NCBI GenBank assembly: GCA_964016885.1
Contig: OZ024745.1
Location: 123,628,001 to 123,692,000, forward strand
From: Eledone cirrhosa
Taxonomy: Eukaryota
Length of the DNA: 64,000 nt
Reading direction: 5' to 3'
The number at the start of each line of letters is the position of its first letter. The stretch's first letter is position 1. Made by a program: the position numbers and the translations under genes. Below are positions 10,350-64,000 of this stretch, piece by piece. Under the pieces are notes generated by a model that was not told the DNA's origin, did not search any database, and worked only from the letters and a program-made list of their open reading frames with translations.

Positions 10350-11276
10350 ATACATACAAATTCTCTCTAATGGACACACACTTCATTTTTATCACACATG
10401 CACTCTCTATCACCTCACATTCTCTCTCTTCTCTCACATACCATTATTTAAAATGAATTTTTTTATTCCTTTATTTTTTGTCCCCTAAGAAGCAAATTTT
10501 CTTTTTTCTTTTTTTTCTTATTTTTTTCTCTTTAAAGAAGATATTTTGATCAATTTTCCTTCCCACTTATCATCTTTTATCATCAAACTATTATAAAACT
10601 GTTACGTTGTTCTTTTTAATACTTCACCCCCCCCCCCACACACACACCCAGCATTTGAATCTGAAAATTTATTTTTTCTCCTGATATGTTGTAGTGTTAT
10701 AAAACACAGGAGGGAATATGGTACTAAAATAAGGAAGGAAAGGAAGTCTTTATAAATACATAAATGAAACATCTCATGCAATGTACATAAAATTTCATTA
10801 TGAAGATGTTGGTTTACGGTATATCCTCCATTCAAGGTGATATTACACAAATTTGTAGCTAGATTTATAATGTCTTACTTAGCTGGCAATAAATAGGAAG
10901 GTTAACAGAACAGTATCTGCTGGAATGCATTGGAAAATAGAGAACTATTCACCTGGGTTATAATAGAGAAAGGCTTAAGGGGAGAGTGACAAACAAATCC
11001 TCAGTATGTAGTAAAACAAAATGATCCTTTATTGGAGTGGTTGCAGCTGATGTTAGTTTGGCACAGTGATCACATTAATAACTGAGTATGAGGGAAAGTA
11101 TACCATATGTGGGCCAAAACATTCCTAACATTCCTTGGTGGCATAAACCCCTTTGTTACCATAAACCCCTTTGTTACCATATTTCTAATGTGATACTGCT
11201 TATGATTTTCAAATAATTTTGAAAATAGCAAAGAATGTTTAGGGATTTAGTATAAAACTAACTTTCACATTATTAA

Positions 11277-11499
11277 CCCTTTAGCATTTATATTACTCTA
11301 TATTTACTATTTTATTTTCATGGTAAACACTTTATCTTACATTATATCTCACATAATATCAAATCTACGGATTTCAATATTATTTATTTTGAGAACAATA
11401 CCTTAACATCAGGAAGAGCAGCTGGTTACAGCTGCTTTGAACAGAAAAAGGTGAGAGAATTCTGGCCAGATATGGCCGGTTTGAATAGTAAATAATGGG
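11277..11499. mobile_element. piggyBac-like MITE family A inserted into a family B MITE
   Basis: TTAA on both sides; splits the family B motif CATTA|TTAA|GCTGATGTTTG. Confidence 0.85.
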
Positions 11500-12650
11500 T
11501 TAAGCTGATGTTTGCAGCATAAGTTTTTATATAAATATAAACACTTCAAAACACATTTCTGCCTTGCAAAACTGAACTATAATAGCTACTTATACTCTGT
11601 CATCTTATATTCTCTAATTCAAAGAAGTTAACTCCACAAAAACTTTAGATGTGAACAAAATAATACACTTTAGCTTTTAGATTTTTGCTGAAAGAACTCT
11701 TAGCCAACAAAGATCCCCCCTAGAGCCCTCTAAATTCCAGTGGTTACCATATAAATTCGTAAGTTGCAGTTGTTTACTAGGAAAAAAAAAGAAATGGGTG
11801 CCAAGAACTGTATGCAACTTATCTTTTGATCCTCACCCTGGGCTTGAAACTTGCAGGGACAAACAAACACTCACACACTCACTCATGCACAATGACAAAT
11901 GATGGAGAATGTAGGGTGGGTTGATCATACAACTATTCAATCTATATGAATATTAGCATTGTAAACAAATATGTGTTGATCTGCTCAAAACAACCATGCC
12001 TGCAGCAATGCATGCTCTCATGGATTTATATGTACATACTTTCCACATTTGATAATCATACACACAGTTCTTCATTAACCGGCTGTTATCCTAATGCCTG
12101 ATGCTTAATACTGCATATATTGTTTGTCAATGAAGAGTGGAAATTTAAAAGCACTGCTTAATATGTTTGTTCCGGGTATAGAATATAGCTATTTTATTCA
12201 TGGTTCCAGGACATTGCTAAATTGTATTAGCAATGATTGGCATTATTTCATTTTTTTTTTAACACACAACTGCAAGTGAAATTGCAAACAATATTTTCAA
12301 TAAGTATCATGCAACTTATATACTTATCAAAGCTTAAAGTATAATATTATAAACACAACCTATTTATCTTGTATATATTGCTGTGATTTGTAGACAAGTA
12401 TATACAGTATACAAGTATATATATAGAGGGCAACAAATTGGCAAAGTCAGTAAAACCTCAGATAGAGTACTTCAATTGAAATTTAAATGTATTGTTGATA
12501 TAACTATACATTAGTTAAACATACATAAAAAGAAAGCAGTATTGGAAAGAACTATAAATGCCATAAATGAGAGAAAAAGGAGGGAAGAGCAAGGACTACA
12601 AGACAAATGAAGGAAGAAAGAAAATGTTAGTTTTGATGAAAAATGAATTA

Positions 12651-18124: not shown

Positions 18125-18425
18125 GTTGAAACAAAATGAAAACGAAATTTCATTTCTCACTCTTAGTATGGCACTTACTTAAATGTAAGTATGCATGTAT
18201 ACGTACATACATATATGTATACAGACGTACAGTAGCATGCACATATATATATATATATATACATATATACATACATATGCATACAGGTACACATACATAT
18301 ATGCACGTATCAGTTTAGCGGCGCTAACGTCGCTTTGTTCGTTTGTAAACAAACTGAACAGCCTGAATTTATGCCATACGGTGTTAAGGCAACCACGTCA
18401 CCTTTTTGTTCAACACTGACACAGG

Positions 18426-18470
18426 AACGATGTACTAGTTTCAAGCTTGTTAGCTATCATCAGCACCGTT
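18426..18470 (-). ncRNA. Type I hammerhead ribozyme, unit 1
   Basis: AACGGUG-CUGAUGA-U-AGCU(AACA)AGCU-U-GAAA-CUAG-UA|CAUCGUU; 7-bp stem I, palindromic ACUAGU stem III; stem I extends over 18408-18494. Confidence 0.82.
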
Positions 18471-18543
18471 TACCCATCTGCCAGATAGTTGAACGTTCGA
18501 AAGTATATACTTTCCTTATGAAAATTAACGGCTGAGCAGCCTA

Positions 18544-18551
18544 ATTTGCAT
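18544..18551 (-). promoter_or_regulatory. Octamer motif ATGCAAAT upstream of the HHR (recurs every 468 bp)
   Basis: Perfect octamer, also kept at 29386-29393 and 55870-55877 at similar distance from CUGAUGA; function inferred. Confidence 0.45.
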
Positions 18552-18893
18552 ATTGAGTGAGTTAAATCGGTCAGGCATACCGAAAACGATAAATTGAAAC
18601 AAAATGAAAACGAAATTTCATTTCTCACTCTTAGTATGGCACTTACTTAAATGTAAGTATGCATGTATACGTACATACATATATGTATACAGACGTACAG
18701 TAGCATGCACATATATATATATATATATACATATATACATACATATGCATACAGGTACACATACATATATGCACGTATCAGTTTAGCGGCGCTAACGTCG
18801 CTTTGTTCGTTTGTAAACAAACTGAACAGCCTGAATTTATGCCATACGGTGTTAAGGCAACCACGTCACCTTTTTGTTCAACACTGACACAGG

Positions 18894-18938
18894 AACGATG
18901 TACTAGTTTCAAGCTTGTTAGCTATCATCAGCACCGTT
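18894..18938 (-). ncRNA. Type I hammerhead ribozyme, unit 2
   Basis: Same sequence as 18426-18470. Confidence 0.82.
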
Positions 18939-19361
18939 TACCCATCTGCCAGATAGTTGAACGTTCGAAAGTATATACTTTCCTTATGAAAATTAACGGC
19001 TGAGCAGCCTAATTTGCATATTGAGTGAGTTAAATCGGTCAGGCATACCGAAAACGATAAATTGAAACAAAATGAAAACGAAATTTCATTTCTCACTCTT
19101 AGTATGGCACTTACTTAAATGTAAGTATGCATGTATACGTACATACATATATGTATACAGACGTACAGTAGCATGCACATATATATATATATATATACAT
19201 ATATACATACATATGCATACAGGTACACATACATATATGCACGTATCAGTTTAGCGGCGCTAACGTCGCTTTGTTCGTTTGTAAACAAACTGAACAGCCT
19301 GAATTTATGCCATACGGTGTTAAGGCAACCACGTCACCTTTTTGTTCAACACTGACACAGG

Positions 19362-19406
19362 AACGATGTACTAGTTTCAAGCTTGTTAGCTATCATCAGC
19401 ACCGTT
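19362..19406 (-). ncRNA. Type I hammerhead ribozyme, unit 3
   Basis: Same sequence as 18426-18470. Confidence 0.82.
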
Positions 19407-19829
19407 TACCCATCTGCCAGATAGTTGAACGTTCGAAAGTATATACTTTCCTTATGAAAATTAACGGCTGAGCAGCCTAATTTGCATATTGAGTGAGTTA
19501 AATCGGTCAGGCATACCGAAAACGATAAATTGAAACAAAATGAAAACGAAATTTCATTTCTCACTCTTAGTATGGCACTTACTTAAATGTAAGTATGCAT
19601 GTATACGTACATACATATATGTATACAGACGTACAGTAGCATGCACATATATATATATATATATACATATATACATACATATGCATACAGGTACACATAC
19701 ATATATGCACGTATCAGTTTAGCGGCGCTAACGTCGCTTTGTTCGTTTGTAAACAAACTGAACAGCCTGAATTTATGCCATACGGTGTTAAGGCAACCAC
19801 GTCACCTTTTTGTTCAACACTGACACAGG

Positions 19830-19874
19830 AACGATGTACTAGTTTCAAGCTTGTTAGCTATCATCAGCACCGTT
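19830..19874 (-). ncRNA. Type I hammerhead ribozyme, unit 4
   Basis: Same sequence as 18426-18470. Confidence 0.82.
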
Positions 19875-20297
19875 TACCCATCTGCCAGATAGTTGAACGT
19901 TCGAAAGTATATACTTTCCTTATGAAAATTAACGGCTGAGCAGCCTAATTTGCATATTGAGTGAGTTAAATCGGTCAGGCATACCGAAAACGATAAATTG
20001 AAACAAAATGAAAACGAAATTTCATTTCTCACTCTTAGTATGGCACTTACTTAAATGTAAGTATGCATGTATACGTACATACATATATGTATACAGACGT
20101 ACAGTAGCATGCACATATATATATATATATATACATATATACATACATATGCATACAGGTACACATACATATATGCACGTATCAGTTTAGCGGCGCTAAC
20201 GTCGCTTTGTTCGTTTGTAAACAAACTGAACAGCCTGAATTTATGCCATACGGTGTTAAGGCAACCACGTCACCTTTTTGTTCAACACTGACACAGG

Positions 20298-20342
20298 AAC
20301 GATGTACTAGTTTCAAGCTTGTTAGCTATCATCAGCACCGTT
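20298..20342 (-). ncRNA. Type I hammerhead ribozyme, unit 5 (partial unit)
   Basis: Same sequence as 18426-18470; the array ends at the edge of the extended stem I. Confidence 0.82.
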
Positions 20343-20367
20343 TACCCATCTGCCAGATAGTTGAACG

Positions 20368-20532
<165 letters not shown>

Positions 20533-21548
20533 TTTCATCTGTATTTGGTGTTACATTCGTATGCGTGCAGGTACAGGCGTTGCGTGGGTTCTGTATGTGC
20601 GTGCGGGGTTTGAAATAATACCGTTTTTTCCTAACGCCAACTTTTCACAATCTAGAAATAAGAAACAAAACAGAACAAAACCCTCAGAGATTAATAACTT
20701 TAGTGTAGTAGCATTAGATGTTATAAAATGATAAAATAATATTAAAGAAATAAGAATTTAATTCATCTAATGATAGTGTATCCTCTCTTACAAAAAATAC
20801 CACGAGTATTTTTTAATTGAATTTACTGGGTCAATAAACTGGTATGTTTGTCCGTTATATGATATTTGTCAATATGTTTAAAACAAAACACATATATATT
20901 TTGTAAGTTATGCTTAAAATATTTTGGAAGAATGTCCTTTGTGAAGAGATGTTTTAAGTGATCACTTTTGTAGCTCATTGAAACCTGTTATTAATGGAGT
21001 CCTGAACATATTTACAATCCATGTCAATTTTCTGTATAGTTCTGAAATATTAATGTTTTTTTTATTGAATGGATGTTTGTATTTCACATGCTAATTAAAG
21101 TTAATTGTCTGTGGAGTGGTGACCTTTATGTGGTTTTATCAAACTGTTTTGTATTATGGAAACATATAATAGATTAAAGTGCAATCCATTTATAAAAAGA
21201 ATATATATTTGAGGTCTGTAATGAAATGTTTGGTATGTCATGAAATTAAAGGATTAATAAGAACTAATAAAAATTAAAATGCTAAGAATAAATGTGTGAA
21301 AATCATTGCTCTAGGTATTGCCCTTTTATGCTAGGCTTTGTAACTATACACTTTAGATCAACTAATTATTTCTAACATTAGCACAAGTCCAGCAATTCAG
21401 GGAAAAGGCAAGGCCGATTTTATCAATCCCAGAAGGATAAAAGTCAAAGTTGACCTCAGCGCGATTTGAATTCAGAATGTAAAGATGAATAAATACTGAT
21501 ACATATGTGTCCAACACTAAAGTACCTCTGCTATTTCACTACCCTTAA

Positions 21549-21763
21549 CCCTTTAGCATTTACATTACTCTATATATACTATAGTATCTATTGTATTTTA
21601 ACAGGAAGGCTTTATCTCACATAATATCCAATCTATGAAATTTTGATAGTATTTATTTTGAGAACAATACCGTAACATTAGTATGAGTGGCTGCTTATGG
21701 CTGGTTTGAACAGAAAGAGGTGAAAGAATTCTGGCCAGCTATGGCCAGTTTAAATGCTAAGGG
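21549..21763. mobile_element. piggyBac-like MITE family A
   Basis: TTAA|CCCTTTAGCATTTA ... TAAATGCTAAGGG|TTAA. Confidence 0.9.
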
Positions 21764-22121
21764 TTAAGATCAACTAATAAACAGACATGCATACTGAGGT
21801 GTTTGCATAAACTGTTAGCAGCCAAATATCTTTTAAATCATACTATCATTTCAAAATAGAAATAAAATATTTGATATTGAAGTCCTAACTACAGTGACTA
21901 AAAATATAGGTTGGAAATTTCATCACTGGAATACCATTGATACTGAGTCTGCTCAATCACAACTGATCTGGGATAAACAACATTAAACTCATACATAAAT
22001 ATGAATTAATAGATGTTCATGATTTAACCCTTTAACATTTAAACTGGCTGTATCCGGCCAGAATTCTTACACCTCTTTCTGTTGAAACCGGACATCACTG
22101 GCCCCTTCATACCTACTTTAA

Positions 22122-26186: not shown

Positions 26187-28945
26187 GGATCAATAAGACA
26201 ATAGAGGTAGTTCGATTTAATAATACAATGATTAAGCTTAGATTAGTTGTAGGCAGGAGACTACTGACAATCATCTCTGCCTATGCTCCCCCAAGCGGGC
26301 CTAGGTAAAGAAGAGGAAGACTGCTTTTACGAGCAACTTTTACAAACAACCGCAATGACAGAGGACGGAGACATCGTTATGCTAGCAGGGGACTTCAATG
26401 GTCATGTTGGTCAGGATGGTTACACTGGGGAACATGGTGGGCACGGTTATGGCTCAAGAAATGAAGAAGGAGTGAGACTTCTTGAATTTTGTGATGCAAG
26501 TACACTAACCATTTGCAACACTAACTTCCAGAAACCTGCCAACCACCTAATAACCTACAAATCAGGCGAGCACATAAGCCAGATTGACTTCTTACTAATT
26601 AGGCAACAGGACAGGCAGATGGTGTCAAATACCAAGGCATACTCTGGGGAAGAATGTACCCCACAGCATAGGTTAGTCGTTAGTGATATCTCAGTAAGCA
26701 AGAGATGGAATGAGACATACAGGAAGGTGTGGAGAAGAAAGGTCTGGAAGCTAAAAGACCTTTCACTAAAATACAAAATTAGAAAAGCCCTTCAAGACGT
26801 GTATGACGAAAAAGAAGACGATTTAGAGTCATATGACATAGATAATAACTGGAATTTCTTACGTGACAACTTACTTCAGGCTACTGATGAAACTTGTGGC
26901 TGGAGCAGAGCTCCAACCAGACAGAGAGTGACCTGGTGGTGGAACAGCACGGTAGATAGGGCCATTAGAGACAAAAGACTAGCATGGACGGCTTGGAAAA
27001 AGGGTGGGAGTAGGGAAGGATATACAGCCGCTAAGAGAGAAGCTAGATGTCAGGTGTATTTAGCACGCACGGAGGCTGAGAGTAGGAGGTTTGCCAATGT
27101 TCTGCGACAGGAAGATCAGAGACGTGTGGTGTTCCACATTGCAAGGCAGTGTAGCAATGCAAATCAGGATGTTGTTGGAGATAAATGTGTCCGGGATGAT
27201 GCCGGTGTACTTAGTGTCACGAATGATCAGAAAAAGGAGGCCTGGAAATGTCATTGTGAGAGACTGATGACTGTGGAGAACGAATGGGAGAGAGAGAAAT
27301 TACCCTCAGTACATCTGACAGAGGGACCAGCTATTGAGATTGACGAATATAGAGGGGTCCAAGAGGCGATTAAGGAAATGAAAAATGGTAAGGCTGCTGG
27401 ACCATCGGGGATAGTTGCTGAGATGCTGAAGGCATCAGGAGACGTAGGCACTAAACTGGTTGCACGCATCATCAATCAGGCTATATATGGTGGTGTCATA
27501 CCCAAAGACTGGTGCAGCAGTATTCTCATAGATTGCTACAAAGGTAAAGGGGATGCTCTGGAGAGGAGCAATTATAGGGGTATAAAACTGATGGATTAGG
27601 TTATGAAAGTGGCAGAAAGGATATTAGCACAACTAATTAGAGAAAGGGTCAAACTAGATGAGATGCAGTTTGGTTTTGTGCCTGGGAAAAGTACAACAGA
27701 TGCCCTCTTCTTGGTGAGACAAATTACCATAGAGGTTCTTAGAGAAGAATAAGCCACTATACTTAGCCTGTGTTGACCTAGAGAAGGCCTTTGATAGGGT
27801 ACCCCGATCTGTCATCTGGTGGTCCCTAAGGAAACTAGGTGTTGAGGAATGGCTTGTGAGGATAGTGCAAACTTTGTACAGAGGTGCTGTCAGTAAAGTC
27901 AGGGAGGAATTCCAGATACAAGTAGGAGTACATCAGGGTTCGGTCCTCAGCCCGCTCTTGTTCATTATAGTCCTCCAAGCCATAACAGAGGAGTTTAAGA
28001 CTGGCTGTCCAGTGGAACTTCTCTATGCTGACGATCTCGTTCTTATGGTAGAATCAGTAGAGGAGCTAGAGAATAAATTCTGGCTATGAAAACAGCAGTT
28101 GGAATAAAGAGGACTGAGAGTGAACCTAGCTAAGACGAAAGTGTTGATGAGTAGAAAAGAGGACAACACACTGATTCCATCAAGGAAATGGCCATGTTCG
28201 ATATGCAGAAAAGGAACTGGCATAAATTCTATAAAATGCACACAATGTAGATCCTGGGTACACAAGAGATGTAGTGGGATAGCAGGCAAACTAAGAGGTA
28301 GGGAGAAATACGTATGCAGTAGATGTACAGGGAAATTAGGCAGTAGAAGTCGCATTGATAGACACATTTTTCAAATGCAGGCGGGTGCTATAGAAGTGGT
28401 CGATTGCTTCTGGTACCTAGGAGATCAGATTAGCATGGGAGGGGGGTGTTCTGAGGCCATAGTATCTCAAATAAGGACAGGTTGGAAGAAGTTTAGGGAG
28501 CTGCTTCCTCTGCTGGCGAAGAAGGGTTTCTCCCTGCATACGAAAAGGCCGGTTATATGATGCCTGTGTGACGAGCATGATGCTGCAGGGTAGTGAGACA
28601 TGGGCAGCAACTGCAGAGGATATGCTACAGCTGGAGAGAAATGAGGCAAGCATACTCCGTAGGAGGTGCAATGTCAATGTGCGTGAACGACCCAGCATGG
28701 ATGTGTTGAGTGAGAAACTGTGTCTGAGAGGGATAGAGAGTAGTGTGCGAGAGAGGAGATTGTGGTGGTATGGACATGTGAGGCGCATGGAGGATGATCG
28801 ATGGGTGTAAAAGTGAGGAAATGCCAGTTGAAGGAAGACATGATAGAAGTAGACCACGCAAAACATGGACGGTGGTGGTGAGAACAGACCTCAGATCGCT
28901 AAAGCTCACGTTGGAGATGACGAAGGACCGTGACAAGTGGACAGA
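26187..28945 (+). pseudogene. RTE-clade LINE ORF (APE endonuclease + reverse transcriptase), truncated at both ends, inactivated
   Basis: GDFNGHVG, QIDF, PQHRLV (APE); KAAGPSG, NYRGIKL, GVHQGSVLSPLLF, YADD at 28024, FWYLG, RRLWWYGHV; stops at 27597, 28088, 28808 plus frameshifts. Confidence 0.95.
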
Positions 28946-29278: not shown

Positions 29279-29722
29279 CGTATACATACTTATATTTAAG
29301 TATCAGCCGTACTAAGAGTGAGAAATGAAATTTCATTTTTTCCATTTATCGTTTTCGGTACGCCCGACCAACTAACTCACTCGATATGCAAATTAGGCTG
29401 CTCAGCCATTAATATGCATAAGGAAAGTATATACGTTCAAATGTTCAATCAACTGACAGATATACGGTGCTGATGACAGCTAATAAGCTAGAAACTAGTT
29501 CATCGCTCCTTTGTCAGTGTTGAACAAAATGGCAACGATGGTTGCCGAACACTGTACGGCTTAATTCGGGCTGTTTGTTTACAAACAAACCGATCATTAT
29601 AATAAATGTTCGGTAAACCCATACGCACATATATATGTGTGCATATATGTATGTACGTATACATACTTATATTTAAGTATCAGCCATACTAAGAGTGAGA
29701 AATGAAATTTCATTTTTTCCAA
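29279..29722 (+). mobile_element. Diverged ~1.2-mer (377-bp period) relative of the 468-bp HHR repeat
   Basis: Colinear with the reverse complement of the array unit; ~66-bp terminal direct repeat 29279-29344 / 29656-29721; followed by (TA)n. Confidence 0.88.
29465..29505 (+). ncRNA. Type I hammerhead ribozyme
   Basis: CGGUG-CUGAUGA-C-AGCU(AAUA)AGCU-A-GAAA-CUAG-UU|CAUCG; extended stem CUGACAGA/UUUGUCAG and GUUCAA/UUGAAC. Confidence 0.8.
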
Positions 29723-32897: not shown

Positions 32898-33056
32898 ACT
32901 TTTAATTTGGGCCTCAGAATAGCTTCCACAATTTAATTGTCAAGTTTTACTACCATGCAACTTAAACTCGCATTTTTATATAATCTTTGATTCTTGTACT
33001 GCTAATAGTTTGATCCCTAGAAAAAGAGCAAAACAAAGACCAACAGAGCAGTTTAA

Positions 33057-33274
33057 CCCTTTAGCATTTACATTACTTTATATTGACTATTATATTTTTG
33101 TGGTAAAGGCTTTACCTCCCATAATTATCTCACACAATATCAAATCTATGAGCTTTTGATATTTATTTTGAGAACAGTACCTTAACATCAGTATGAGCAC
33201 CCAGTTATGGCTGGTTTAAGCAGAAAGAGGTGAGAGAATACTGGCCGGATACAACCGGTTTAAATGCTAATGGG
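33057..33274. mobile_element. piggyBac-like MITE family A
   Basis: TTAA|CCCTTTAGCATTTA ... TAAATGCTAATGGG. Confidence 0.88.
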
Positions 33275-33469
33275 TTGAACCAAATGTTAAATATATTTAT
33301 CATGTGGTATTGTATTTAGGCTCCTTCTTACCAGCAGCAGTAAACTCTGGACACTGTTCTCTGTCTGTATCAGTTTTCGTACATCCGCCTACATTACTAA
33401 TGAGATCTAGATTGCAAGGACTTTCTACTACTTCCTGTGAAACTTCTGAACATCTGAAACAGTTTCTCT

Positions 33470-39480: not shown

Positions 39481-39880
39481 GAGTAAGCAATGGAAATACC
39501 AATGGAAACATAGTTTCCTTTGTCCAATTTGATGAGCTCCACCCCACTCAATAACAAAATGAGGTCTAGGATCTTGTTGATTGATAAAGAAAATATTGGC
39601 AATAATGAAGAAAATCTAAAATATTTCAGTGCACACTAATTTGTTATATCCTGTACCAACTTGTAAAGTATTCTAAGATTTTTATTTGCTGCATTTTCTG
39701 TGACTGTAAGAATACAATAAAGTAGGTGCCCTGTTTATTTTATAGTTTTTAGAGTGGCTGCTGAAAAAATGGGCATCCACTTGTAAAAATAACTGTTCCA
39801 AATAAAAACAAACTATCCCACCCACACTAGTCCAGTAAACACATTTAAATAGTCAGAGCAAAAGAGTTTATCACAATTAA

Positions 39881-40096
39881 CCTTTTAGCATTTACATTAC
39901 TCTATATTTACTATTGTATTTTCATGGTAAAGGCTTTATCTCACATAATTATCTCACAATATCGAATCTATGAGATTTTGATATTTACTTTGAGAACAAT
40001 ACCTTAATATCAGTATGAGTAACAAGTTACAACCAGTTTGAACAGAAAGAGGTGACAGAATTCTGGCTGGGTACAGCCGGTTTAAATGCTAAAAGG
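39881..40096. mobile_element. piggyBac-like MITE family A
   Basis: TTAA|CCTTTTAGCATTTA ... TAAATGCTAAAAGG|TTAA. Confidence 0.9.
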
Positions 40097-40251
40097 TTAA
40101 ATAGTGAGGGCAAAAAAATATGACATTTATTGGAAGCTTCAGATTTATAGCAGATAAAAAAATATTATTGTAATATTTATACATTAATTTTCTTAATGCA
40201 TTAACTCAAAGCATAAAGTAACATTGCAAAGAACATATATATATATATACA

Positions 40252-46463: not shown

Positions 46464-46549
46464 TATAATTATTTCATCTGATGAACAGGCCGGACGTTTC
46501 TGTAAAGAGAGTCTAGTTTCTTGAAACGTTTGGTAATGGAATAATTATA
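46464..46549 (+). ncRNA. Type I hammerhead-like motif with long stem II
   Basis: UAUAAUUAUUUCAU-CUGAUGA-[imperfect hairpin, GUAA loop]-GAAA-C(GUUUG)G-UA|AUGGAAUAAUUAUA; 14-bp stem I. Confidence 0.62.
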
Positions 46550-54846: not shown

Positions 54847-55762
54847 ATAAATATATATATACGTTTTGCCAGATTAGTATATCTATCATGTTGATCTTAT
54901 GCTTGTACATGCACCTGTTTGTTATTAGCTGATGCATATTTTGAATTTTAGACAAACAAAACCTGAATATATTTTTCTATGTATGTATATATATTTGCAT
55001 GTACATATGTGTATATGTGTTTATTTGGAAACTGTATATAGTTTTTTTTTTGTATGTGATTGATGGAGTATATTTTCAAACTGCAGTAGCAAAGAGGTGC
55101 ATATCACTGAGAAGTGACTATTCATACAAGTACATTTCTTTAATGTAAATATTCAGAAGAGAAGTGCCTATATATATAAGTGCATTTCTTTAATGTTCAT
55201 ATTGCTGTTAGCAGCTATGTTAAAAAAGAAAGAATATATATATTGTTAAAGTAACAATCCTGTTGATTGCAACTGCAGGAGTTGTGACATCAGTTTGAAT
55301 AATACCTTGTTAAGTTTTGCAATCCCTCTTGGTCACATCTAATATTCTATTTGTATTTAAAAATTTATTTTTCTATTTTAATGCTTTAGGAATTTGGTTT
55401 TCTTTACCTCAGCTTTTAACTTCTACTAACATTCTTTAAAAAAGTTTTGTTTCATGCTGTTTTATGCAGTTCCACAATTATAATTGCATTATATTTATTT
55501 TATTTTCAAAAAACTTTTTACACTTTTCTTCTTTCTTAAACTAAACCTTTTTCATCTTCTTTCATCTCTGAATTATTTTCATATCTTATTTATTTAAATT
55601 TCTTGGAAATAGAAAAAAAATAAGAAAAAAAAACATTTTCTGTGAGTTACTGAATCAAATCTCGGCTTCTCTTGTTTGCATACCCACTCACGTCTATACC
55701 AATAAACTTTGTGTAGAATAATATACGATATAGTTTCAAATCTAAGTAATATATATATATAT

Positions 55763-56137
55763 AAAAGAAAATGTTCGCTCTACATGGCTGAATACAATAA
55801 ATGTAATCTGGGTTTTTTGAATATTAATAATAACATTCCATTCGTTTGCAAATAAGCCAGTTTGGTAATATGCAAATCAGGGTGATCAGTCACTGTGTAT
55901 TTTTGAAAATAGCATATATTTTCACTAGCTCTGACAGTTTGGCAGGTGAACAGTGAGCTGTACTGATGAAGGGTGATACCCAGAAACATTAGTGTCTGCA
56001 GTTCTGTTCACATGTGAACACAAGAGCAAGAATGAAGGGTTCATTCTACTGACATGGCTATAAAATTGAGGCTTGTTTGCAAAATTGCAAATGAATCGAA
56101 TGTTATTAATATTCGAAAAACTCAGATTACATTTATT
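55763..56137 (+). mobile_element. Short HHR-bearing element with inverted copy of its 3' end, between (TA)n tracts
   Basis: 55796-55858 is the reverse complement of 56070-56137; octamer at 55870; HHR at 55946-56011. Confidence 0.75.
55946..56011 (+). ncRNA. Type I hammerhead ribozyme
   Basis: GUGAACA(GU)GAGCUGUA-CUGAUGA-A-GGGU(GAU)ACCC-A-GAAA-CA(UUAG)UG-UC|UGCAGUUC-UGUUCAC; 15-bp bulged stem I, GUC triplet. Confidence 0.82.
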
Positions 56138-56880
56138 ATATATATATAATGTACGGGATAACAAATTATCGTTATAGGTAATCCAGTTAGACGTTATGAG
56201 TACTCCGTATTGTGGATAGTTTTAACGTACAGCGTTGTTTGACTCAATAAGTGGTTAGGTGGCGAGTTCTCGGGAATTCCTATGCAGGTTAATCTTGGAG
56301 TAATAATAATGAAAGAGTGAAGAATAACATGGTCAACAGTACAAAAGGAGTTTTATTTACAGTATTAACAATTGTTTCATTGATTAGGGTGTCTAAAAAT
56401 TGCTAATCACTTGAAGTTGTGTCACTCAATTTAAAATACATGTATGCCTAATCAAATCATTGGAATAATTGATTAAAATTATACACGCCATTTGTAATAT
56501 ACTAGGAAAATTCAAATCACAACATCAGTAATAAAGAAAGAAAAAGGAAAAGAGAGAGAGAAAAAGAAAAAAGAAAAAAATAATAAATAAATAATAATAA
56601 ATAAATTAGAATGAAGATGATAAAAATAAGTAAAAAAAGTGAACATAATATGATTATTGAAAATAGTTGTGGTGGTTAAAGTTATATTGGTGTGTAAATA
56701 TAAAGATGTGATGGTATAAATATGAAAATATTAACTATATACACATATGTATTAGTTTAAATTACAGAGGGCTATATTATGAAGAAATAATACAGTGATA
56801 AATAAAGGATAAATTAATAAATTGGAAGTAAGTGAGAGGTGAAGAGAACATGATAGGATATAATGGAAGAGGTGACATAC

Positions 56881-57289: not shown

Positions 57290-58890
57290 AAAGAGGGCCC
57301 CTGAGACCAGTAAGACAACCTCTCTAGTGCTCGTGGCACGAATAAAAGCACTCAGTCCATGCTGTAAAGTGGTGCTGGTGTTAGGAAGGGCATCCAACCA
57401 GTATATATACTACTGTTAAACACAATGAACGCAACAAATGAAATTTGTAACAACTGCGTAAACAGCAATAACACTAACCATGTTAGGTCTGTGCACGGTA
57501 GTGAGGCCATGTGTGAGAACCCCACGACTGTCATCAAGCAATCGCACAACAGGAAAAAGAACGAGACATCGCATCTCAAAGTTGCCACACTTAATGTTGG
57601 CACTCTAGCAGGTAGATCTGTGAGATTGCAGAGATGTTGGAGAGAAGGCAGGTGGATGTGTGCTGTGTGGAAGAGGTGAGATGGAGAGGTGCCTCTGCAA
57701 GACTAATCACAGGCAAACATCGTAGTTATAAGCATTTCTGGGTGGGTAATGATGATGGATTAGGTGGGGTGGGCATATTACTGGCTGAGAGATGGATCGA
57801 TAAGACAATAGAGGTAGTTAGAGTTAGTAATAAAATAATTAAGCTTAGATTAGTTGCAGGCAATCATCTCTGCCTATGCTCCCGAGGCAGGCATAGGTAA
57901 AGAAGAGAAAGACTGCTTTTACGAGAAACTTTTACAAACAGCCTCAATGACAGAGGACAGAGACATGATTATGCTAGTAGGGGACATCAAGGGACATGTT
58001 GGACGGCTCCAGGATGGATACACTGGGGTACATGGTGGGCTCAAGAAATGAAGAAGGAGTGAGGCTTCTTGAATTTTGTGATGCAAATACACTAACCATT
58101 TGCAACACTAACTTCCAGAGGCCTACCAACCATCTAATAACCTACAAATCGGGCGAGCACAGAAGCCAGATTGACTTCCTGCTAGTTAGACAGCGAGACA
58201 GACAGATGGTGTCAAATACTAAGGCATACCCCGAGGAAGAATGTGCCCCACAGCATAGGTTAGTCATTAGTGATATCTCAGTAAGCATGAGAAAGAATGA
58301 GACATACAGGAAGGTGTGGAAAAGAAAGGTCTGGAAGCTAAAAGACCTTTCATTAAAATATAAATTTGACATAGATGATAACTGGTATTTCTTGTGTGAC
58401 AACTTACTGCAGGCTACTGAAGAAACTTGTGGTTGGGGCAGAGCTTCAACCAGACAGAGAGTGACCTGGTGGTGGAGCAGCACGGTTGCTAGGGCCATTA
58501 GAGACAAAAGACTGGAATGGAAGGCTTGGAAAAATGGTGGGATTAGGGAAGGATACACAGTCACTAAGAGAGAAGCTAGACGTCAGGTGTACTTAGCACG
58601 CAGGGAGGCTGAGAGCCGGAGGTTTGCCAATGTTCTGCGATGGGAAGATCAGAGACGTGCGGTATTCCGCATTGCAAAGCAGTGTGTCAGTGTAACTCAG
58701 GATGTTGTTGGAGATAAGTGTGTCCGAAATGATGCCGGTGTACTTAGTGTCACGAATGATGAAAAAGAGCAGACCTGGAAATGTCACTATGAGAGACTGA
58801 TGAATGTGGAGAACGAACGGGAGAGAGATAAATTACCCCCAGTAGACCTGACAGAGGGACCAACTATTGAGATTGACGAATATAGGGGAG
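57290..58890 (+). pseudogene. 5' portion of an RTE LINE (5' UTR + APE endonuclease), frameshifted and 3'-truncated
   Basis: LKVATLNVGTL, DVCCVEEVRW, GGVGILL, SAYAP, GDIKGHVG, QIDF, PQHRLV; closely similar to 26187-27350. Confidence 0.93.
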
Positions 58891-58995
58891 ATGTATATAT
58901 ATATATATATATATGTTTATATATAGTAATAATAATAAAATTGAAGAAAGCAGCGATTCTTTGCTTAAACTTTATTCTGTTATTTTAATAAATAT

Positions 58996-63450: not shown

Positions 63451-63924
63451 GGACATATTTTGGTCACTGGACATATTTTGTTCATTTGTTGAATAGGATG
63501 ACTTAAAGCTTCTTTATATTGAATGCTCAGAGTGTAGAGAATGCGTAGTAGCGAAATAAATATAATAAAGCAAAATGTGATTTTTAAAAAAAAGATCATT
63601 ATAACAAATTGGCTTACCTGAGGTATTTTTCTTGACTCATTTTATTTTTCTTTATTTACTAAGCTAATGTTGGGCTGTAGCTTTGATTGCAAGTGTTCAT
63701 AAGTTGCTGTTTTTGTTTTTGCTATAGATAGTGCAAGGCAATCAGGCACAGCACTAGAGCTGTAGGAAGATTTGAATTAATTACCGTATTCCTTTCAATC
63801 ATAGAATTTTGCTGTTTGTATCCAGTTTGGAATACATACACTGTATCCCTGCCTCTCATAAGAGGTAATTAAAACTGCTGGCACCAGATGAGCCTAGGCT
63901 ATCAGTTCATGAATATTGCTTTAC

Positions 63925-64000
63925 CCCTTTAGCATTTACATTACTCTATATTTGCTATTGTATTTTCACAGTAAAGGCTTTATGTTACATAATTATCTCA
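63925..64000. mobile_element. piggyBac-like MITE family A, cut by window edge
   Basis: CCCTTTAGCATTTACATTACTCTATA start. Confidence 0.85.

Follow-up and report, generated by a model that had tools for sequence, protein, structure and literature searches.

A candidate internal snRNA-type promoter in Penelope-like tandem hammerhead retrozymes of Eledone cirrhosa

Hammerhead ribozymes of dispersed repeats in Eledone cirrhosa are preceded by a block consisting of an octamer box, a YCAG core and a TATA-like box, a feature that is real and non-random. The block is very probably a genuine snRNA-type promoter, whichever polymerase class it belongs to. In the reading that we favour, to which we assign a probability of about 0.55, it would act as an internal snRNA-type promoter, likely of the RNA polymerase II (Pol II) class, from which transcription reads through to the ribozyme of the next unit in Penelope-like tandem retrozymes. 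The window referred to below is a stretch of 64,000 nt of contig OZ024745.1 (positions 123,628,001 to 123,692,000), part of an AT-rich genome of 3.0 Gb.

The octamers of the window cassettes lie at 55870 and 29386 on the plus strand and at 18544, 19012, 19480 and 19948 on the minus strand (features in Table 1). An initial annotation had placed them 93 nt (55870), 84 nt (29386) and 88 nt (tandem array) before the hammerhead; these distances, taken to the C3-A9 core, are confirmed, and the succession of a middle block and a TATA-like box after the octamer reads as claimed. The window holds 16 octamers against 8.2 expected, a total reached in none of 100 shuffles, and 6 of the 16 belong to ribozyme cassettes. 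What had been described as three diverged elements is indeed a recurrent block, but in two families only, the array and the copy at 29386 being subfamilies of family B. At the array, the block was found for four of the five ribozymes, the fifth unit being cut just past its TATA. The predicted start of the family B copy at 29.4 kb is at about 29458, and one in the array is predicted at 19883 on the minus strand.

Table 1. Features of the ribozyme cassettes in the window, and loci of the host promoters
Feature	Positions or loci	Strand	Details
(TA)7 target microsatellite, left junction of family A insertion	55750..55763		
Inverted 5'-truncated second copy, family A 3' end including tail (Penelope-like inversion)	55764..55858	-	
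Octamer box (T-octamer-N-A-G)	55869..55880	+	identical to host U6/U6atac/MRP proximal box
YCAG core	55886..55890	+	matches host U1/U2/U4 proximal element
TATA-like box	55915..55918	+	YCAG +29 nt, octamer start +45 nt
Predicted transcription start	55942..55945	+	C/A at 55943/55944, from host spacing
Family A type I hammerhead, extended helix I	55948..56012	+	core 55963-55969, GAAA 55983-55986, GUC triplet 55994-55996
Conserved 3' double-hairpin region	56068..56141	+	TA run at end (right junction)
T6 run ending preceding partial family B unit, upstream of promoter block	29336..29341	+	
Family B candidate promoter block	29385..29433	+	octamer box 29385-29396, YCAG 29402-29406, TATA 29428-29433
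Family B minimal type I hammerhead, outer limits approximate	29452..29515	+	core 29470-29476, GUU triplet 29498-29500, palindromic helix III
Family B 3' hairpins, internal microsatellite, tail, T6 run	29516..29722	+	T6 run 29713-29718, TA junction at end
Family B tandem array, 4.8 units x 468 bp	18126..20368	-	100% match, TA runs both sides, five hammerhead cores (GUA triplet)
Host Pol III promoters	L061, L062, L063, L101, L227		
Host Pol II promoters	L076-L078, L091-L096, L107, L108, L115		

The elements are two related high-copy families (A and B) of non-coding, TA-inserting, Penelope-like retrozymes. First-look searches returned 3329 and 3072 candidates respectively, 40 of each being scored, and these figures are not copy numbers. 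Units of both families share the order octamer box, YCAG, TATA, extended helix I with type I hammerhead, 3' hairpins, tail, T-run, next unit. The families are homologous, and the 3' hairpins, tail and T-run are conserved in both besides the block, so the earlier statement that the blocks were conserved while the rest had diverged stands for the former and not for the latter. In full-length family A copies the octamer-YCAG module is triplicated as 33-nt monomers, and the octamer box of the 55.9-kb copy, a truncated solo, is the last of the three. Tandem organisation is seen in the 468-bp array, in copies of more than one unit in families A, B, C and D, and in family G (families beyond A and B are introduced below).

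The ribozymes have the C3-A9 core, GAAA, NUH triplet and three helices of a type I hammerhead, with helix I open. Family A has a GUC triplet with helices I-III, and family B has GUA or GUU with a minimal helix III. The GUU triplet occurs in most displayed copies of the 29.4-kb subfamily, while the array subfamily has GUA. Scanning 856 kb of genome sequence for the helices gave 108 hammerhead contexts, against 0 when the sequence was reversed. Covariation support consists of helix readings made family by family. Rfam hammerhead models gave no match in the whole window or for family A; family B matched HH9 (18.5 bits, E 0.019, below the gathering threshold of 52). The only Rfam matches over the whole window were to miRNAs, and these were rejected as microsatellite-driven and below cut-off. 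Window positions 46478-46540 hold a core-like word with a distant GAAA and no promoter block, a putative hammerhead only, its helices being unconfirmed.

Insertions terminate in TA repeats, either within the unit at a T/A-rich site or at its T-run, and an inverted truncated copy is often attached. An inverted 5'-truncated copy, a 3' tail at some ends and a microsatellite target are marks also ascribed to Penelope-like elements, with their TA targets, in the available part of PMC8557442, and the pLTRs of Penelope, Neptune and Naiad described there are alike in tandem and inverted truncated copies, a partial 3' tail, TA targets and a promoter inside the repeat. Unlike in Penelope-like elements, no reverse transcriptase frame was found beside the cassettes. 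More generally, the window, 120 loci and ten 10-kb stretches yielded no element-linked reading frame, the frames present being those of other repeats. Given the tandem units, the hammerhead, the insertion anatomy and the lack of a reading frame, the elements therefore qualify as non-LTR retrozymes on the testable criteria. They resemble the metazoan non-LTR retrozymes covered by PMC7229834, bioRxiv 10.64898/2026.07.22.740005 and the available part of PMC7761336 in their tandem non-coding type I hammerhead units, thousands of dispersed copies and Penelope-like insertion anatomy.

No autonomous Penelope-like partner with this cassette was found among the loci examined. Penelope-like frames nested in the same TA-rich sites are candidate mobilising partners (L021:1-1116, minus; L009; L018; L002:886-1500, minus). 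These frames are putatively Naiad-like and GIY-YIG-like, and L021 has no Pfam match. The hammerhead family adjoining the GIY-YIG-like frame (L002) lacks the promoter block.

The conservation of the block was assessed with a genome pattern (octamer box plus core) designed to avoid the canonical A and B cores, which gave 130 matches against 0 for the reversed pattern. The octamer alone (no N-A-G) plus core gave 224 against 5, although the reversed control underestimates chance, about 22 of the 100 matches listed from the 224 being unrelated by eye. Positional enrichment of the octamer upstream of hammerheads, proposed as a check in the initial annotation, is borne out by these counts and by its retention in nine families. 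In addition to A and B, the pattern search revealed groups C, D, E (with many divergent copies), F, H and I, and G was met incidentally; H and I are each represented by one decayed copy, the helices of which are unconfirmed. The octamer and N-A-G were part of the query (the box was queried for six of the nine families), and only other positions count as evidence: T13 is present in 9/9 families, YCA at offset 16 in 8/9, and TATA at 42-45 in 8/9. Identity across the nine families is 0.50 and 0.45 in the block, compared with 0.27-0.32 in the spacers. In one family B subfamily the A-G is changed and the octamer kept.

Plain common descent of related, functionless repeats would account for the homology of the families, and also for octamers that decay like their flanks within families (0.05 versus 0.027 changes per site in A, 0.014 versus 0.029 in B), no selection on individual copies being seen. 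Because individual copies appear to decay neutrally, constraint would act on the source lineages. Common descent sits poorly with conservation that is blockwise, the spacers being at background. Likewise, no family defined by a broken octamer was found among the 100 listed of 214 non-octamer variant matches, which are mostly point changes in known families, and descent alone does not predict the match to host genes described below. This explanation was already disfavoured, and we regard it as very improbable. Among 14 incidental hammerhead contexts, which form seven clusters, three clusters are octamer families, two belong to a sister group (see below) and two have nothing similar. Outside the genome, a metagenome scan gave no cassette among at least 117 matches; two passed a loose helix test, neither of them with a TATA.

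The block might instead act in RNA, or bind the mobilising Penelope-like protein, its likeness to host promoters being a coincidence. Dyad symmetry around the block in B, D and G (10-12 of 14 matches; shuffled 99th percentile 9) is consistent with such a role, as is the C/A start word, which also forms part of the extended helix I. However, no consensus RNA fold or hairpin of the block was found across the nine families, the octamer is invariant while its would-be partner strand varies, and three separate spacings match host promoters, which makes a role of this kind distinctly improbable.

Host snRNA-type promoters were sampled from matches to U6 (27 of 48), U6atac (6 of 15), MRP (1 of 1), U1 (10 of 42), U2 (17 of 48) and U4 (8 of 42). 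After exclusion, as probable pseudogenes, of 14 U6 and 5 U6atac matches that lacked the proximal box and had microsatellite or unrelated flanks, and with tandem duplicates counted once, five Pol III promoters (U6, U6atac, MRP) and eleven Pol II promoters (U1/U2/U4) were retained. All five Pol III promoters have an octamer box at -76 to -78 (three perfect, two 7/8), a TATA at -30 and a T/G start, and the box is in no case followed by YCA. In all eleven Pol II promoters AATTA is followed after 32-34 nt by a YCAR at -56 to -58, and the YCAR after another 23-29 nt by a TATA-like box; the start is Y/A. None of the eleven has an octamer at the Pol III position, and in one a 7/8 word lies farther upstream. 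Both classes thus have their TATA-like box near -30, and Pol II genes share an A-rich 3' box that ends in CAGA. A pyrimidine-rich, non-octamer distal word near -260 is common to many genes of the two classes; a vertebrate-style distal octamer was rejected, the host distal element being this different word. No description of this promoter layout was found for the lineage, subscription papers and supplements aside. The U6-type and U1-type layouts of the host are defined as a by-product, and provide candidate U6 promoters useful for guide-RNA expression.

Compared with these promoters, the block is a hybrid. The proximal octamer box is present in all element families as in the host Pol III class, and its flanks presumably fit the POU2F consensus. 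The spacing from octamer to TATA is 42-47 in the elements and 46-48 in the five host Pol III promoters (p=0.007), and that from YCA to TATA is 26-31 nt in the elements and 23-29 nt in the eleven host U1/U2/U4 promoters (p=0.10, no difference), p-values that overstate independence, the families sharing ancestry and not being independent witnesses. At TATA+28 to +31, 25/28 element rows have Y/A and 4/28 have Y/G. Because chance alone would, on a rough estimate, give Y/A in one of two rows, and because the rows are related to each other, this figure counts as supporting evidence only. The elements mostly lack two further features of the Pol II class: AATTA occurs 32-34 nt before YCAR in 1/20 element rows versus 11/11 host promoters, and near matches to the distal element occur in 3/20 rows, none of them near -260.

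As read from these motifs, the elements join a U6-like, Pol III-class octamer box to a U1-like, Pol II-class core. The middle block, which was to be compared with the host proximal element, matches that of U1/U2/U4 in sequence and in TATA spacing. The suggested likeness to U6-type promoters holds for the octamer box, which is that of host U6/U6atac/MRP and likewise proximal, but does not extend to the core geometry and start base, which are Pol II-like. The proposed compact internal promoter-ribozyme cassette is supported by both sequence tests, with the qualification that unit-length RNA could arise from tandem copies only, the 55.9-kb copy being solo. According to the available part of PMC1761439, the choice of polymerase in insects depends on small differences in the proximal element, and the polymerase of a hybrid is therefore not callable from sequence alone.

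Transcription from a U6-type (type 3) Pol III promoter would yield an RNA of 250-350 nt from the ribozyme foot to the T-run, and templates that carry the promoter would come from occasional leaky read-through, as in the schistosome Sm-alpha precedent (PMC6765202 and PMC2220036, in the available parts). It would explain why the 12-nt box equals that of host U6, U6atac and MRP and is accompanied by a TATA, and why a conserved T-run closes the unit, with many insertions ending there; no T4 occurs in A, B or F within 150 nt past the predicted start. On the other hand, the octamer-TATA distance falls 3-4 nt below that in all five host Pol III promoters, themselves without YCA, the start words look like Y/A, T4 runs follow shortly after the start in several C and E copies, and the T5-T6 runs in tail and promoter would have to be read through for the promoter to be copied. 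We consider Pol III transcription rather unlikely. Group H (L193, G000:C2:279133804-279133916, minus), with TATA at the U6 spacing of 47, a T/G start and no YCAG, is the family closest to it, and this single decayed copy is possibly a Pol III-driven retrozyme branch or the ancestral state.

Under the favoured Pol II reading, a POU factor would bind the octamer, and SNAPc and TBP the YCAG and TATA. The start of transcription would lie about 30 nt past the TATA and 10-26 nt ahead of the core, and the polymerase would continue across the tail, the T-run and the promoter of the following unit. A promoter-bearing unit-length RNA would then be excised by two ribozymes and would circularise; the authors of PMC7229834 proposed, in their Discussion, a retrozyme life cycle with a unit-length circle. 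Copying of the circle into TA repeats would fall to a Penelope-like reverse transcriptase, and the promoter would be conserved across families because every new multimer inherits it.

The ends of insertions bear on this mechanism. Among 30 family A copies chosen by their 3' part only (one being the window copy and two the arms of one insertion), 21 reach 5' of the cleavage site, with 16 continuing beyond the predicted start, 12 beyond the octamer and 5 beyond the T-run. The copied template would therefore contain the promoter and the T5-T6 runs, and such a template fits Pol II read-through with a unit-length circle better than a Pol III transcript ending at the T-run. A peak of 5' ends at the cleavage site or the predicted start, expected for a linear template, was not seen in these 30 copies; 9/30 of the 5' ends cluster at +35 to +59, adjoining the query start. 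Several findings stand against the Pol II reading: the octamer box is found in 5/5 host Pol III promoters and, at that position, in 0/11 Pol II promoters, many insertions end at the T-run, a 3'-box-like word in family A could stop snRNA-type Pol II, and multi-unit copies could also arise at the DNA level. The family A word in question, at 56111-56125, resembles the host Pol II 3' box, lies near the usual 3' insertion end and is not evident in family B. Contigs from two sequencing runs are informative on presence only.

A dual promoter, from which Pol III would produce short RNAs terminated at the T-run and Pol II the read-through RNAs by which the element spreads, would be in keeping with the combination of a Pol III-class box and a Pol II-class core, with the two classes of insertion 3' ends and with templates longer than one unit. 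However, priming at T/A-rich sites of a circular template explains both classes of 3' end, and we judge a dual promoter improbable.

A sister group of retrozymes without the octamer shares the 3' region of the octamer families and keeps the YCAG, a TATA 26-27 nt later and Y/A at +29 or +30. In place of the octamer it has a different, conserved GC-rich box. Its loci include L015:177-1416 (a 310-bp tandem) and L356:3252-3581, with relatives in L002, L019, L033, L037, L201, L025 and L215. A word equal to the host distal element lies just 3' of the cleavage site, at about -257 from the next predicted start in L015. Its role as a distal element is only suggestive, as the word also takes part in helix I pairing and is variable in L002 and L033.

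A wider reading, which we advance tentatively and at somewhat less than even odds, is that the whole retrozyme radiation runs on a chimeric snRNA promoter drawn from two host classes, in which the YCAG-TATA Pol II-type core is kept while the upstream activator box is swapped or multiplied. The swaps, held with the same reserve, would be the U6 octamer box in nine families and the different box in the sister group, and the multiplication the three 33-nt monomers of family A. If so, animal retrozymes would be self-transcribing parasites of the snRNA machinery, with a promoter evolution resembling LINE-1 monomer turnover. This would also reveal an undescribed grammar of host snRNA promoters, in which spacing and a proximal octamer, rather than the presence of a TATA, separate the polymerases.

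Animal retrozymes show high expression in all tissues tested (PMC7229834), and the available part of a review states that metazoan retrozymes seem to harbour no promoters and rely on read-through (PMC7761336). Metazoan non-LTR retrozymes have been described without an element promoter, whereas the Eledone elements keep a promoter-like block across families. No element promoter is described in the main text of PMC7229834 or of bioRxiv 10.64898/2026.07.22.740005, and in the whole text of the latter "promoter", "octamer" and "snRNA" occur 0 times; the available part of PMC13282606 mentions neither hammerhead nor promoter. No report of this block was found in the literature, aside from subscription papers and supplements; those of the retrozyme papers may list such sequences.

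The closest known systems are newt satellite 2 and Sm-alpha. Newt satellite 2 (Coats, Zhang and Epstein 1994), known to us via the citing passage of PMC2220036, is likewise a tandem repeat with a hammerhead, and its internal snRNA-type promoter has been attributed to Pol II. The block described here, from what is presumed to be a different phylum, differs in being compact (~50 nt), with a TATA-like box and the octamer at the host Pol III position, and the unit is ~470 bp compared with roughly 330 bp in the newt. Schistosoma Sm-alpha (PMC6765202 and PMC2220036, in the available parts) is alike in having a promoter followed by a hammerhead in tandem units, the upstream unit transcribing the next. 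It was reported as a SINE-like Pol III unit, whereas the block here copies upstream elements of snRNA genes. A candidate element promoter matched piece by piece to host snRNA genes, with a predicted start base, makes the promoter question for retrozymes testable. If the favoured reading is true, these repeats switch themselves on and do not rely on neighbouring genes, which would generalise the lone newt result and explain the strong tissue-wide expression.

Other repeats of the window were recorded in passing. Positions 26268-28560 and 57981-58988 are two broken endonuclease-reverse transcriptase LINE copies, with a chance octamer inside the reading frame. The octamer at 27157, which is followed 107 nt downstream by a core-like word, was rejected as a cassette, as it lies inside the LINE reading frame, and the repeat carrying it recurs among the chance rows of the genome search with octamer and core. 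A dispersed repeat of ~260 bp has several window copies (11273-11532, 21545-21801, 33053-33311, 39877-40133 and 63921-64000). Elsewhere in the genome, L361 (G000:C1:118076000-118085999) is a 10-kb nest with eleven octamer boxes from families B and G.
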